Assembly: GCA_040290255.1 (NCBI GenBank)
Contig: PSMU01000002.1
Coordinates: 160,001-224,000 of the forward strand
DNA from: Nitrososphaerota archaeon
Lineage (GTDB): Archaea; Thermoproteota; Nitrososphaeria; PSMU01
Direction: 5' to 3'
DNA: 64,000 nt
The notes below the pieces were generated by a model. It saw nothing but the letters and a program-made list of their open reading frames with translations. It was not told where the DNA came from and did no database searches. Below, piece by piece: positions 32,233-36,594 of this stretch (its first letter is position 1; every line of letters begins with the position of its first letter). A program made the translations under genes and the position numbers.

Positions 32233-33399
32233 TTAGAAGTAGAGCAGATCGTACCTCCACTCCCTGAGCCTAAGGCGCGAGGCCTTGGGCAGCAGCTTGT
32301 ACTCACCCTCGAGCCTGCCGCCATCCCTTATGGCCTGGGAGTACAGGGAGGCCAAGGGCGTGGGCCTTCGCCGAAACGAGTCGGCGAACTCAACGTCGAC
32401 GAGCGCTATGAAGGGCTCATAACCCAGGCCCCATTCATAGCCGTGCAGGAGGCTCCACCAGAAGAACCCGCGCACGTCGAAGCCCGAGGCCCGGGCGCGG
32501 CGAAGGCCGTCAAGTGAGGCCATCAGGAACTCAGCCCTCAGCGCTTCATTTCTCGTAAAGATGCCCGTTTCGGTGATGAGCAGCGGCCTAGAGGTGAGCT
32601 GGCCTATGAGCCTTACCGCATCGAAGAGGCCCCTCGGGTTCACCGAATAGCCTACGTCCAGGCCTCCTAAATGAAGGTCGACGTAATAGTCTATGCCCAC
32701 GAAGTCCATTTCCCTGCAGACGGCCTTGGCGAAGCTCCTCTGAAGGGCCCTATCGAAGGCATAGCTGAGCGCGAGGGAAAAGGGGTTGAGCCTGCTCGAT
32801 GGCCTCACGGGGGACACCGAGAGCGTTATGCCCGCCCTCAGCCCCAGCGTATGGGCATACTCGGCCAGCTGAGGGAGCAGGGAGGAGAAGAGCTTAAGCG
32901 CCCGCCTTACGCCGGCTATATAGAGCCGCCAGTAGGGCGGCAGGATGCCGGCGAAGTAGGCCATGACGGGGTAGATGTTGGGCTCGTTGAAGAGGAGCAC
33001 CTCGTCGCAGTAATCGGCCAGAAAGGCCATGGCCTTCTGAGCGTAGCGGACGAAGTACTTCTCGTTGCCGCTCTTCAGCCAACCCCCGTTGAGCGTGAAC
33101 CACTTAGGGTTCGTAAAGTGATGCAGGCCGGGCAGCACGCGCAGGCCCTGATCTTGGGCCTCCCGCAGGTACTGCCGGTAGAAGCGCAGCGCATCTTGGC
33201 TCCACACCCCGGGCTTGGGCTCCAGCAGGGCCCATTCAAGCGTGGTGCGCAGGCTATCGAGCCCCAGCAGCCTGGCCAGCGCGAAGTCCTCCTTATAGAA
33301 GAACATATGGCGGGCGCCATGCGTGGGCGGCATGTCGCATTCGAACTCGCCGAAGTGCTGATAGGCCGAAAGAGAGGCGCCCCACCGGAAGGAGGCCAT
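32233..33399 (-). CDS. Glycoside hydrolase family 1
   Basis: WGASLSAYQ, LHHFTNP, acid/base NEP, nucleophile ITETG, YEWGLGY. Confidence 0.9.
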   Translation of the reverse strand: MASFRWGASLSAYQHFGEFECDMPPTHGARHMFFYKEDFALARLLGLDSLRTTLEWALLEPKPGVWSQDALRFYRQYLREAQDQGLRVLPGLHHFTNPKWFTLNGGWLKSGNEKYFVRYAQKAMAFLADYCDEVLLFNEPNIYPVMAYFAGILPPYWRLYIAGVRRALKLFSSLLPQLAEYAHTLGLRAGITLSVSPVRPSSRLNPFSLALSYAFDRALQRSFAKAVCREMDFVGIDYYVDLHLGGLDVGYSVNPRGLFDAVRLIGQLTSRPLLITETGIFTRNEALRAEFLMASLDGLRRARASGFDVRGFFWWSLLHGYEWGLGYEPFIALVDVEFADSFRRRPTPLASLYSQAIRDGGRLEGEYKLLPKASRLRLREWRYDLLYF

Positions 33400-33454
33400 G
33401 GCCGCGCTAGGGGAGCGCGCTTAAAGGCTTAAGCACAACTTGCCCAGGGGGTGC

Positions 33455-33850
33455 ATGTTCAGCGCCGAGGAGCTGGCCTTCCTGATGAGGAACGAGCTCT
33501 GCCGGCTCGCGACCGTAGACCGCCGGGGCTGGCCCCATGTGGTGCCCGTCTGCTACATCTTCACGAAGGGGGCCTTCTACATGGTGACCGACCTGGGCAC
33601 CAAGAAGCTGGGGAACTTGCAAACGGACCCAAGGGCAGCGCTGCTGGTCGATACGTACAAACCCAACAGGGCCGTGCTGGTCAGGGGCAGGGCCCAGCTC
33701 CTTCTGAGCGGGCCTGAATTCATGGAGGTGACCGAGCTCTTCATGAGGAAGTTCGCATGGGCAAGGGCGGACCCCTGGCAAGAGAACGAGGCAGCCATCA
33801 TCAAGCTCGTTCCCGAGGCAAAGGTCAGCTGGGGGCTAGGCAGGGCTTAG
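33455..33850 (+). CDS. Pyridoxamine 5'-phosphate oxidase-like flavin/F420-binding protein
   Basis: RLATV...PHVVPV, KKLGNL..DPRAALLVD, VSWG. Confidence 0.85.
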   Translation: MFSAEELAFLMRNELCRLATVDRRGWPHVVPVCYIFTKGAFYMVTDLGTKKLGNLQTDPRAALLVDTYKPNRAVLVRGRAQLLLSGPEFMEVTELFMRKFAWARADPWQENEAAIIKLVPEAKVSWGLGRA

Positions 33851-34474
33851 CGCCCCCCTCAGGAAGACGAGGCCCAGGTAGACCAGCACCAAGGCTAGGG
33901 CCAGCAGAAGATATCTGTAGTACCTTTGCCTGAGCAGCTCTGTGCCCCTGCGGGCCATATAGGCGGCCGAGGTGAGGAAGGCGTAGTCCATCCAGACATG
34001 GGCTGCATACATGAGGGCGAGCCCCCACCAGGAGGCGAAGGAGAGCGCGGCGGTGATCAGGACCGCGCCCGCGCTGGACCACCAGAGGAGAAAGAAGGGG
34101 TTTAGCCCCGTGAAGGCGAGGCCGGCCAACAGGGGGCTGCGGGCGAGGCGCGCCGCGGAGCCCTTGCCGACCTCGCCCTTCGTTCCCGAGAGGGCGTCGC
34201 GGATGGTAAGCCCCGCGAAGCCGAAGAGCGAAAGAGCCCCGAGCACCGCGATCGCACCCCTTATGCTGGAGCTTTGCCCCAGCGCGTTGAGGCCAAGGGC
34301 CAAGAGCGAGACGTAGGGCAGCTCGACCAACGTATGCCCTAGCGCAGCCAACAGGCCGCCCTTGGCTCCCAGCCGGGCGCCCTGCAGAAGCGAGGAGAAG
34401 AACAGGGGACCCGGCGCCAGCGCGCCGCTGGCGCTCACGCCCACGGTGAGAAGGGCGAGCTCCGCGATGTTCAT
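33836..34474 (-). CDS. LysE-family exporter
   Basis: SGALAPGP, ALGHTLVE, LNPFFLLWW. Confidence 0.88.
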   Translation of the reverse strand: MNIAELALLTVGVSASGALAPGPLFFSSLLQGARLGAKGGLLAALGHTLVELPYVSLLALGLNALGQSSSIRGAIAVLGALSLFGFAGLTIRDALSGTKGEVGKGSAARLARSPLLAGLAFTGLNPFFLLWWSSAGAVLITAALSFASWWGLALMYAAHVWMDYAFLTSAAYMARRGTELLRQRYYRYLLLALALVLVYLGLVFLRGALSPA

Positions 34475-34480
34475 GTCCCC

Positions 34481-34556
34481 GCGCGGTGCGCTACTTCATC
34501 GGCCCGGGCAAGCCTCAGCAGATACCCGGCACATCATATGCTCAGCGCACTGCACG
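34481..34556 (-). ncRNA. Candidate box C/D-like or K-turn RNA with permuted box order in the lysE leader
   Basis: CTGA-gcat-ATGATG, 12-nt spacer, CTGA-stem-ATGAAG; terminal repeat GTGCGCT/AGCGCAC; spacer complementary to 16S rRNA AGAUACCCGG. Confidence 0.55.
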
Positions 34557-34569
34557 TCTGCGCGCCCCC

Positions 34570-35340
34570 TTAAAGGGCTTCTGCTTCCACGGCCCCCAGC
34601 GAATGAACGGCACCGACGCCATAATAAAGTAGAAAGCCCGCCAGCGCCAGCAGGGCCACCTTCCACGCTTCATAGCGCGCCAAGCCCAGGGAGGCCTCGC
34701 CCATCCTCACGATGTAGTAGAGCGAGGCGCCCGCGGCAAAGGCGAAGAAGCCCGAGGAGGTAAGGCTGATGCCGTAGGGCAGCGCCACACCGAGGATGCC
34801 GGAGAGCGTGATCAGCGCCAGGAAGGCGAGGAAAGGAGCGCGCCAAGGCCTGCGCGACGCGAAGGCTGAGAACGAGATGCCCACGATCATGGCCTCCACG
34901 AACTTGTGCAGGGCAAAGGAGAGCCCCGGGTAAAGCCCGCCCACCGCCTGAACCAAGTCGGAAATCGAAGGTGAAGAAGCGACGCCTCCCACCTCCATCG
35001 CCTCGGCCACGGTGTGAATGGCGAGGGCCACGGCCATCGCGGCGGCCACCTCCGCCCCCTGCAGCCTAGCCCTTATTCCTGCCCTCTCGATCAGCAGCAC
35101 CGTGAGCGCGCCCAACGCGAAGAGAAGCGCCAAGAAGAACGAGTTGAGGTCTAGAAGCGGGCTCTCGGGCAGGGCGGCTTCGCCCAGCAGGTCGCGCACG
35201 AGTGCCACGCTGGAGCCCAGCGCTACGGCCGCAAATGCGGGCACGGAGGCCTTTCTTGTCATGAAGATAAAGAGACCCAGCCCCGCCGAAAGGGCCACCA
35301 GCGAGCCCATAAGAGCCATGGAGAGGGCCAGGGGCACCAT
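34570..35340 (-). CDS. Divergent ZIP-like metal transporter
   Basis: About 8 TM with HTVAE and HKFVE (HxxxE) motifs. Confidence 0.65.
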   Translation of the reverse strand: MVPLALSMALMGSLVALSAGLGLFIFMTRKASVPAFAAVALGSSVALVRDLLGEAALPESPLLDLNSFFLALLFALGALTVLLIERAGIRARLQGAEVAAAMAVALAIHTVAEAMEVGGVASSPSISDLVQAVGGLYPGLSFALHKFVEAMIVGISFSAFASRRPWRAPFLAFLALITLSGILGVALPYGISLTSSGFFAFAAGASLYYIVRMGEASLGLARYEAWKVALLALAGFLLYYGVGAVHSLGAVEAEAL

Positions 35341-35445
35341 TCAACGTCTGAGGGCCTGCGCGCCTTAAAAGCTTATGCGTGCGGGTGTCCACACGACGGG
35401 CGTCTCCCTTAGCAAGCTTTTAAGGAGGCACCTAGGTCCAACCGC

Positions 35446-36594
35446 GTGCTCTTACCCACGACGGTGGTGGGCAGCTGGCCGAGGCCTGCCTGGCTCCTGC
35501 AGGCCCTTAGGCGCAGGGAGAAGGGGGAGCTCTCCTGGGAGGAGTTCAATGAAATAGCCGATGAGGCCGTGCTCTTGGCGCTAAAGTATCAAGAGGACGC
35601 GGCGGTCGATATCATCAGCGACGGAGAGCAGAGAAGGGACAACTTCTACTCCTTTGTGGCCGACAGGGTGGAGGGCATAAAGTTGATGACGGTCGCGCAG
35701 CTCCTCGACTACGTCGAGGACAGGAGCGGCTACGAAGCGCTGCTAGCGAAGCTGGACGTGCCCGCCTTCGCCATAAAGAGTCCCGTCGTCGTGGAAACGA
35801 TAAGGAAGGCGCGCCCGCTGGCCCTGCAGGACTTCCTCTTCGCTAAGCAGCACACGAGCAGGCCTCTTAAGGTGACGCTGCCGGGGCCCTATATGCTGCT
35901 TCGCTCGAGCTGGGTCAAGGGCATCTCCGACCGAGCATATCCTGACCGGTTGGACCTGGCCAGGGATCTAGTGGCCCTATTACGCGAGGAGATCGCGCAG
36001 CTGAGGGATGCGGCGGCGGCCTTCGTGCAGCTGGATGAGCCCGTGCTTATGGAGGTCCTCTACGGCGAGGAGGGAAGGCAGAGCTTTATGTGCGCCGCGC
36101 TGACGTACAAGAGCGACCCTAGCGAGGAGCTCGAGCTGGCAAAGCAACTCGTGAATGAGGTGGTGAAGGGGCAGGGCGGCCTCAAGATAGGGGTGCACGT
36201 CTGCAGGGGCAACTGGACCTCCAAGGAGGAGGCTCTGTTGAAGGGCGACTATGCCCCGCTCCTGCCCTACCTGCTGGACATGAAGATGGATCAGATGGTG
36301 CTTGAGTTCTCCACGCCGAGGGCGGGGGAGCTGAGCGTCCTGAAGGAGTATGCGAACGAAAAGGAGCTGGGCTTCGGCGTCGTGAACCCCAGGGGCTTTG
36401 AAGTCGAGAGGCCGGAGCAAATAGCGCGGAGGGTCAGGGAGCTGCTGGCCTTTTATGATGCCGGCAAGGTGTACCTAAACCCCGACTGCGGATTCGGAAC
36501 CTTCGCGGAGAGGCCCGTGACGACGGCCCAGGTGGCCTTTGCTAAGCTCAGGAGCATGGTGGCTGCCGCCGAGCTGCTGAGGAGGGAACTGTAG
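35446..36594 (+). CDS. Cobalamin-independent methionine synthase II / MetE catalytic-core family protein
   Basis: TTVVGSWPRP, SDGEQRR, QLDEP, HVCRGN, LEF, PDCGF (Zn ligands). Confidence 0.9.
   Translation: MLLPTTVVGSWPRPAWLLQALRRREKGELSWEEFNEIADEAVLLALKYQEDAAVDIISDGEQRRDNFYSFVADRVEGIKLMTVAQLLDYVEDRSGYEALLAKLDVPAFAIKSPVVVETIRKARPLALQDFLFAKQHTSRPLKVTLPGPYMLLRSSWVKGISDRAYPDRLDLARDLVALLREEIAQLRDAAAAFVQLDEPVLMEVLYGEEGRQSFMCAALTYKSDPSEELELAKQLVNEVVKGQGGLKIGVHVCRGNWTSKEEALLKGDYAPLLPYLLDMKMDQMVLEFSTPRAGELSVLKEYANEKELGFGVVNPRGFEVERPEQIARRVRELLAFYDAGKVYLNPDCGFGTFAERPVTTAQVAFAKLRSMVAAAELLRREL

Follow-up and report, generated by a model that had tools for sequence, protein, structure and literature searches.

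Our analysis points, with a probability of roughly 0.55, to a promoter-driven, circularly permuted, single-guide box C/D methylation-guide RNA that would also serve as the leader of a lysE transporter gene in a Nitrososphaerota archaeon (GenBank assembly GCA_040290255.1). The candidate lies in a window of 64,000 nucleotides (nt; contig PSMU01000002.1, positions 160,001 to 224,000, numbered here from 1), in which a 95-nt spacer on the minus strand (34475-34569) houses the element and lysE follows downstream on the same strand. From 34550 to 34486 the minus strand reads gtgcg-CTGA-gcat-ATGATGT-gccgggtatctg-CTGA-ggcttgcccgggccg-ATGAAGT-agcgcac, and the boxes run D-C-guide-D-C (34545-34493), whereas the canonical order is C-guide-D'-C'-guide-D. 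Both D boxes are perfect CUGA tetramers, and exactly 12 nt separate AUGAUGU from the second CUGA.

In the mechanism that we propose, a TTTAAG box would start transcription at the first CUGA, at about 34547-34545. This CUGA and AUGAUGU would fold as a kink-loop (K-loop), and the second CUGA and AUGAAGU, together with a hairpin of 5 base pairs (bp), as a kink-turn (K-turn); by the known mechanism of the family, both motifs would bind L7Ae and recruit the Nop5-fibrillarin bridge. The sole intact guide would be the 12 nt between the C-type box of motif 1 and the D-type box of motif 2, flanked 5' by a C-type and 3' by a D-type box like each guide of a normal small RNA (sRNA), and by the N+5 rule it is predicted to direct 2'-O-methylation of 16S U757 (E. 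coli U793). The element would represent a C/D sRNA that has been circularly permuted and opened in one spacer, with both RNA termini, 5' and 3', on the second-guide strand. Inspection of the spacer sequence revealed no T-run terminator between the element and the lysE ATG, and the RNA would therefore be made as a 72-nt lysE leader in an otherwise largely leaderless organism. Trimming out of this leader would presumably follow once proteins protect the RNA, and in a hypothetical circular RNA a spacer of about 12 nt would be regained.

Box geometry, guide target and promoter

Both K-motifs consist of adjacent boxes in the order D then C, one spanning 4 nt as a K-loop and the other closed by a hairpin. 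For the first pair (CUGA-gcau-AUGAUGU), tandem G.A/A.G pairs, a U.U pair and a C-G pair are predicted, like those of a D'/C' K-loop. The second pair is predicted to form a K-turn with C:G at -1b:-1n, a 3-nt loop (G, A, U), tandem G.A/A.G, A:U at 3b:3n and G:C at 4b:4n. A first-pass annotation of the sequence had described this string of boxes and the geometry of both pairs, and all of it is present; the K-turn stem that it drew as ggc/gcc exists as well, although 3 bp is too short, and the stem can extend to 5 bp (GGCUU/GGGCC). According to the sections of PMC6298567 consulted, L7Ae folds every k-turn tested, irrespective of the 3b:3n and -1b:-1n pairs; an L7Ae complex shows A:U at 3b:3n, and the favourable pair at -1b:-1n is C:G. 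Judged by its sequence, pair 2 fits the k-turn rules for folding by L7Ae and provides a predicted binding site in the 5' leader.

The linear sequence departs from the canonical architecture at both ends. A C-type box is missing 10-14 nt upstream of the first CUGA, as is a CUGA 10-14 nt past AUGAAGU, where the sequence is GGGG/GGGA. A terminal C/D K-turn closed by the flanks of the RNA is also missing; the complementary ends flank no C/D pair. Read as a circle, the element becomes C-spacer-D-4 nt-C-12 nt-D-hairpin, and the canonical order is obtained only in this circular reading.

A C/D guide matches its rRNA or tRNA target over some 10 bp or more. The host 16S rRNA contains GGATTAGATACCCGGGTAGTCC, and guide positions 2-11, counted from the second CUGA, form 10/10 Watson-Crick pairs within 16S 753-764, with a G.U pair at position 1 and position 12 unpaired. 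Guide position 5 from the D box pairs with host U757, in N+5 geometry. An E. coli record that falls 4 nt behind conventional numbering somewhere between the 515 and 785 landmarks has the equivalent of U757 at residue 789 of its annotated 1538-nt gene. The conventional E. coli 790 loop we take to be 787-AUUAGAUAC-795, and this numbering together with the 4-nt offset places U757 at E. coli U793. Both the pairing with the 790 loop and the U793 target, which had been proposed from the sequence before the host 16S was consulted, are therefore borne out as predictions. The 790 loop is conserved and binds the KsgA/Dim1 methyltransferase.

Two further RNAs bear on this target. A relative from the same class (G030) carries on contig C78 (2150-2420, minus strand; locus L156) a canonical sRNA, ATGAAGA-12 nt-CTGA-ttaa-ATGATGA-11 nt-CTGA, whose terminal stem is GATC/GATC. 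The D guide of this sRNA includes CGGGTAT, complementary to the core of the 790 loop, and would set C795 at N+5 if the 16S of that organism agrees (the gene was not found in its assembly, which is 87% complete). The primers given for Nanoarchaeum equitans sRNA24 in the Methods of PMC3491384 also contain CGGGTAT, immediately 5' of a D box. A literature search on methylation in the 790 loop brought up only off-topic papers, and Sections 6 and 8 of PMC4644070 do not mention the loop. The loop may be a recurrent guide target, which is an unverified lead.

The position of the promoter supports a transcript that begins with a D box. The upstream regions of host tRNA genes have in common a purine-rich stretch followed by TTTAAR, as in AAgccTTTAAggg upstream of tRNA-Arg (..gccTTTAAggg..) and AAAgcTTTAAggg upstream of tRNA-Glu (..gcTTTAAggg..), both on contig C5, and the promoter box of the element, gcccTTTAAggggg, is nearly identical to these two. 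In 11 of 18 such boxes, 27-29 nt separate the first T from the mature tRNA end downstream. For open reading frames (ORFs), the distance from the first T of TTTAAR to the start codon peaks at 27 nt (17 cases) and 29 nt (15 cases), and 62 of 145 TTTAAR boxes lie 25-34 nt before ORF starts; this spacing suggests that most host mRNAs are leaderless and start about 27-29 nt from the first T. The TTTAAG box of the element stands 27-29 nt upstream of the first CUGA, which is the modal TATA-to-start distance in the host genome; its distance to the lysE ATG, 100 nt, falls in the sparse tail of the host distribution. A start predicted at the first CUGA would leave no room for a 5' C box, as the first-pass annotation had argued, and would give the lysE mRNA its 72-nt leader.

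The same predicted start would leave most of the 5' arm, gtgcg, outside the promoter-driven RNA. Complementarity between the ends (GTGCGCT/AGCGCAC) had been noticed in the first-pass annotation and does appear in the minimum free energy (MFE) structure, but the resulting terminal stem lies largely upstream of the start and claims two bases of the first CUGA, C and U, that the K-loop needs as well, and for these reasons we treat it as uncertain. The 5' arm GUGCG is probably transcribed only through read-through from the upstream gene, and the end complementarity would exist in such read-through transcripts.

Folding, strain variation and chance

The MFE structure also contains the alternative helix that the first-pass annotation had proposed, CCGGGUA/UGCCCGG, which covers 7 guide bases. 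In naked RNA at 37 °C this guide-hiding helix is more stable than the K-turn stem (-11.7 vs -5.4 kcal/mol), and the K-turn fold would therefore need protein. Sequencing runs that contain the locus come from soil and hot springs, and no RNA run was listed among them. Strain contigs from four DNA runs, all at least 96% identical, were compared over 33800-35400, with runs X6 and X7, which gave identical results, counted once. In the strain with about 3% divergence (X6/X7), the element changes only at G34500A and G34504A, and the boxes and the guide are unchanged. G34500A falls at loop position L1 of the K-turn. G34504A replaces a U.G by a U-A pair in the K-turn stem, which gains stability (-5.4 to -6.3 kcal/mol), and disrupts a C-G pair of the competing guide-hiding helix, which loses it (-11.7 to -8.8 kcal/mol). 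The direction of these changes agrees with the K-turn model, and two substitutions prove little.

These two mutually exclusive folds would also suit an L7Ae-responsive lysE leader, in which L7Ae would bind the K-loop and the K-turn, switching between the guide-hiding helix and the K-turn would control lysE translation or stability, as happens in l7ae mRNA leaders, and the match to rRNA would be incidental. We consider this account, raised in the first-pass annotation, quite improbable. A 72-nt leader is unusual where most TTTAAR boxes lie 27-29 nt from start codons, and regulation by L7Ae through k-turns in 5' leaders has been published (PMC5539422; PMC6298567, as far as the sections consulted go). 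Such a switch needs neither a 10/10 match to rRNA (p ~0.01) nor a C-to-D spacing of exactly 12 nt. Moreover, the K-turn reaches only to 34494, which leaves 19 nt to the AUG at 34474 and the AUG itself uncovered, so that it does not occupy a translation-occluding position; the box pattern was found at none of 80 lysE-homologue loci in metagenomes, all of them distant (at most 47% identity). The guide 10-mer occurs at 4 of these 80 loci, all in one unrelated context. The switch thus received no specific support.

A chance assembly in a GC-rich spacer, combining the lysE promoter with two CTGA, two TGA-containing hexamers and a short rRNA match, is in our view highly improbable. The pattern CTGA-N2-7-RTGATG-N11-14-CTGA occurs once in the host genome, at this site, versus 0, 0, 0, 0 and 1 times in five Markov simulations; as the simulations under-represent TGATG, we estimate from the observed word counts that about 0.8 matches are expected. 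A 10/10 core match to rRNA was obtained for 4 of 400 random CTGA-adjacent 12-mers. Genome-wide, 41 of 11,349 CTGA sites have RTGA[ATG]G within 45 nt and a stem of at least 3 bp in K-turn register, and a single one of these 41 falls in non-coding DNA, namely the present element, with its 5-bp stem. Multiplied together, the rates for the pattern (~0.8), the guide (0.01) and the K-turn hairpin (0.004) give about 3e-5 expected occurrences per genome, without counting the correctly spaced promoter.

Several observations speak for coincidence. An rRNA complement of at least 10 nt lies beside 486 of 22,613 CTGA sites, compared with 399 of 22,613 when the rRNA is reversed; rRNA-complementary 10-mers beside any NTGA number 993 genome-wide with the real rRNA versus 744 with the decoy, and TGATGN-spacer-CTGA modules with at least 10 nt of complementarity number 3 versus 1. 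The candidate was picked post hoc out of a very large scan, and the fold energy of the whole spacer is ordinary relative to shuffled sequences (z = +0.8). The joint presence of four boxes, 12-nt spacing, N+5 geometry, a K-loop and a K-turn is nevertheless very unlikely to arise by chance, and the phylum-wide counts of forward and backward patterns point in the same direction.

C/D sRNAs in the host genome and its relatives

Of 401 genomes from the phylum, 11 contain the composite pattern CTGA-N3-6-RTGATG-N13-CTGA-N9-20-RTGAWG, with 14 matches in all, and the backward version gave none. Among the 13 matches outside the host genome, 11 have their first CTGA preceded, 17-21 nt upstream, by a C-type box and are ordinary dual-guide sRNAs. 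In a shifted register, another (L143) can be read as a canonical sRNA (C, 12-nt guide, D', 15-nt linker, C', 12-nt guide, D); the remaining one, L147, has an unclear reading. Because most of the other matches are canonical sRNAs, the composite pattern marks C/D sRNA genes in this phylum. Only the present element, among all 14, lacks an upstream C box, and it alone carries a 5-bp hairpin in K-turn register.

The nearest relatives comprise 40 genomes, all related at class level only. In class relatives, D'-C'-guide-D arrangements with perfect boxes were found 53 times versus 7 in the control, in 26 of 41 genomes. At 7 of 12 sampled loci, a C box (ATGATGT, ATGATGA, ATGAGGA, ATGAAGA or ATGATGG) was present at 12-14 nt, and the terminal stems of these seven are mostly G+C-rich. 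ATGAAG is a frequent C' box in relatives, where families with a D' box, a linker and AUGAAG recur, some of the linkers looking self-complementary; one guide family accounts for at least 12 of the matches listed. This last pattern is loose (matches in 296 of 401 phylum genomes) and was used only to see recurrent families. As the same variants serve as C or C' boxes in the sRNAs of relatives, AUGAUGU and AUGAAGU have working counterparts there. Two conserved sRNA families recur across many of these genomes (entries f14, f20 and f10). One has a guide with ACTGACCTG, then CTGA, a short linker that looks self-complementary by eye in several copies, and ATGAAG; in the second, CTGA comes after the guide, which is CGCCGTCCCAGT or AGTCGTCCCAGC, and 9-15 nt lie between this CTGA and ATGAAG.

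A DNA search of the 40 relatives returned matches of at most 35 nt, none of them at the element, and Rfam reported nothing at gathering score over the whole window. In our judgement, an Rfam miss is expected for a new guide, since the sRNA models lean heavily on guide sequence.

The linear order of the element fits the architecture of relatives (L143 and the linker families) up to the D box, which raises the question of whether it is a decayed canonical sRNA, C-guide-D'-hairpin-C'-guide-D minus its 3' D box, surviving as a relic or crippled guide. In that case the upstream CUGA would be a coincidence or the leftover of a neighbouring sRNA, and a canonical sRNA could equally well begin at the predicted start, which precedes AUGAUGU by 8-10 nt. 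GGGA occupies the expected D position (34479-34476), but its A is G in a 99%-identical strain: the change A34476G in X2 removes the GA of this tetramer, the only D-like one past AUGAAGU. GGGA is thus not maintained, which argues against a canonical 3' D box. Decay would have to have erased at least 2 of the 4 D-box positions while about 27 constrained positions stayed intact, for which we estimate a probability of at most 0.004 under neutral decay; only a rearrangement that removed the 3' part would make it plausible. A CUGA standing 2-7 nt before a C box by chance has a probability of about 0.03 by our own estimate from counts. Guide, hairpin and the three boxes still present show no flaw, and the divergent strain has a stronger hairpin. 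Decay therefore appears unlikely to us.

Almost no other C/D sRNAs were recognised in the host genome. A strict regular expression for canonical dual-guide sRNAs gave 1 match (coding context not examined), and a canonical scan that allowed up to 2 box mismatches also gave 1, at C8:6736. The latter candidate (C8:6736-6788, plus strand) is near-canonical, TGATGA-12 nt-CCGA-9 nt-TGAGGA-12 nt-CTGA, within a 365-nt non-coding stretch with an AT-rich box about 33-38 nt upstream; its spacers match 16S near 1164 (9/10) and near 1008 (9 plus one G.U of 10). It may be the only conventional sRNA of this genome. A scan with relaxed boxes and a terminal stem returned 2 matches, neither with a stem of at least 3 bp, and a scan for C...D with a terminal stem returned 3 non-coding candidates, none convincing, against a reversed-genome control that was poorly matched. 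TGATGA-N10-13-CTGA occurs 12 times, compared with 8-16 times in simulations, and so shows no enrichment despite the presence of fibrillarin, Nop5 and L7Ae. The guide sequences of relatives' sRNAs were not found in the host genome, although the outputs of that search were uninformative, and a screen of 216 orphan TATA-like boxes for permuted or promoter-driven sRNAs found none comparable. Class relatives have a few clear sRNAs in each genome.

Returning to the permuted, promoter-driven guide RNA that we favour, several points weigh against it. Assembly of a small ribonucleoprotein on an open, permuted scaffold is putative; the case for a discrete RNA is built on features of the sequence, and that for conservation on strains at least 96% identical. 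That almost no other recognisable C/D sRNAs occur in the host genome leaves the extent of guide use uncertain. A C box, this guide and a D box were found together 7 times over 185,579 species genomes, all in bacterial records and none in archaea. The best local Rfam matches to C/D models fall well short of the gathering score (sR46, 11.1 bits, E 5.8; sR1, 9.1 bits, E 7.9). The hypothetical spacer at a circular junction has no target, the best of 35 end combinations reaching 9/10, and inspection revealed no bulge-helix-bulge motif, the flanking helix of the MFE structure having 13 bp, a single A x C mismatch and no bulges of 3 nt. The stability of the guide-hiding helix and the ordinary fold of the spacer count in the same sense, and the absence of both strain substitutions from the 32 box and guide positions among 66 is not significant (p ~0.27, own estimate). 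On balance, the target, boxes, geometry and promoter of the first-pass interpretation are supported, and the host has the protein genes; its terminal stem is uncertain, and its leader switch found no specific support.

Genomic context and relation to known systems

The features of the element and its two flanking genes are collected in the table. The archaeal host genome (1.21 Mb, 64% G+C, 9 contigs, 91% complete) encodes fibrillarin and Nop5 in adjacent genes (C3:353913-355349) as well as L7Ae (C5:12623-12892), with matches to PF01269, PF01798 and PF01248 that are each above the curated cut-off. The TAA stop of the upstream ORF falls within the TTTAAG box. Further out, a GH1-like glycosidase (32233-33399, minus strand), a PNPOx-like flavoprotein (33440-33850, plus strand; convergent with lysE, with a 15-nt overlap) and a MetE-like cobalamin-independent methionine synthase domain protein (35446-36594, plus strand) are encoded, and the genes around the element (32233-36594) look ordinary. 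Within the N-terminal coding region of lysE, 34390-34424 matches unrelated contigs of runs X2 and X6/X7 over 35 nt with 5 differences, and a relative's genome (G025) has a 96% match to 27 nt at 34416-34442; the matches in 34390-34442 probably reflect a short conserved or repeated coding word.

Table. Features of the candidate guide RNA and its flanking genes (window coordinates)
Feature	Position	Strand	Basis
lysE-family transporter ORF, 212 aa	33836-34474	-	Pfam LysE PF01810, E 2.7e-26; ATG at 34474
3' arm AGCGCAC, complementary to GUGCGCU 34550-34544	34492-34486	-	MFE pairs
C-type box 2, AUGAAGU	34499-34493	-	sequence; ATGAAG(A) often serves as C or C' box in relatives
Linker hairpin ggcttgcccgggccg, 15 nt; K-turn C-stem GGCUU/GGGCC, loop GCCC	34514-34500	-	5-bp stem, K-turn register
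D-type box 2, CUGA	34518-34515	-	sequence
Guide gccgggtatctg, 12 nt, complementary to the 16S 790 loop	34530-34519	-	pairing to host 16S
C-type box 1, AUGAUGU, 4 nt (gcau) past D-type box 1	34537-34531	-	ATGATGT is a C box in relatives' canonical sRNAs
D-type box 1, CUGA, 5' half of the K-loop	34545-34542	-	sequence; aligned as D' by Rfam sR46 and sR1, at E 5.8-7.9 only
Predicted transcription start	34547-34545	-	34574 minus the modal 27-29 nt
5' arm GUGCG of the inverted repeat	34550-34546	-	sequence, MFE fold
Promoter-like element, purine-rich stretch and TTTAAG (34574-34569)	34569-34583	-	resembles host tRNA promoters
Upstream ORF, 256 aa, hydrophobic, without Pfam family	34570-35340	-	ORF list and Pfam search

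The closest precedent is sRNA24 of N. equitans, a permuted C/D sRNA found to be circular by inverse reverse-transcription PCR (Randau 2012; PMC3491384, in the sections available). The same article states that permuted genes must be considered in automated annotation, and a full-text literature search found no precedent for a permuted C/D sRNA other than sRNA24, which needed circularisation. Both RNAs have a permuted genomic order of C and D boxes that becomes canonical only as a circle, and the primers in its Methods show, by our own reading, a D box, 4 nt and a C box, as in the element. The two differ in that sRNA24 has been seen as a circle and adjoins a split reverse gyrase gene, whereas the present element is known from its sequence alone, which is a further point against it. 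In contrast to sRNA24, the element has a promoter by which the 5' end appears to be set at the first D box; a 15-nt hairpin closes one of its K-motifs, and only a single guide is intact.

With canonical dual-guide sRNAs, as presented in the portions of PMC7994747 and PMC6009581 consulted, the element shares its boxes, the 12-nt spacer, the N+5 geometry, a target in a conserved functional rRNA loop, the D'-3-6 nt-C' K-loop and a host that encodes L7Ae, Nop5 and fibrillarin. It differs from them in lacking a 5' C box, a 3' D box and a terminal stem formed by the RNA ends, and in having two K-motifs that are both adjacent D-then-C pairs around one guide. sRNAs derived from mRNA 5' ends are known in Pyrobaculum (PMC6009581, category 1), and the same work (Lui et al. 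2018) describes a circular permutation between the Pyrobaculum sR56 and sR57 families. Circular C/D RNAs in Pyrococcus and Sulfolobus were reviewed in 2021 (PMC7994747). Taken together, these parts of the literature document circularisation and the genomic re-entry of permuted descendants, and hence a route by which the element could have originated. sR56 and sR57 swap guides and keep the canonical box order, whereas the box order itself is rotated in the element. The L7Ae-bound leaders described in the sections consulted of PMC5539422 and PMC6298567 likewise have a hairpin-closed k-turn with 3b:3n A:U in a 5' leader; in contrast to the element, they have no guide, second K-motif or C-to-D spacing and are placed to affect the start of translation. 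New in the candidate would be a D box at a 5' end defined by the promoter, the tandem pair of D-C modules, the single guide and the additional role as a gene leader.

A more specific version of our favoured reading holds that the permuted guide is non-circular, its 5' end set at a D box by the promoter, and that it forms a working ribonucleoprotein on an open scaffold without a terminal C/D K-turn. We put this forward as a tentative possibility. If true, the archaeon, which retains fibrillarin, Nop5 and L7Ae, would have in this element one of its very few recognisable guides, and production of the guide, being an obligatory lysE leader, would be coupled to expression of the transporter.

Tools for predicting C/D guides generally assume the order C-D'-C'-D. 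If the permuted guide RNA proposed here is real, it would be a second independent permuted case, with its own promoter and in a deep-branching lineage, and permutation would be a recurrent route of guide-RNA evolution. A ribose methylation would be predicted in the 16S 790 loop, and the element would offer a natural test of whether the L7Ae-Nop5-fibrillarin particle requires a closed two-strand scaffold. The annotation of seemingly guide-poor lineages may then be missing genes with a rotated box order.

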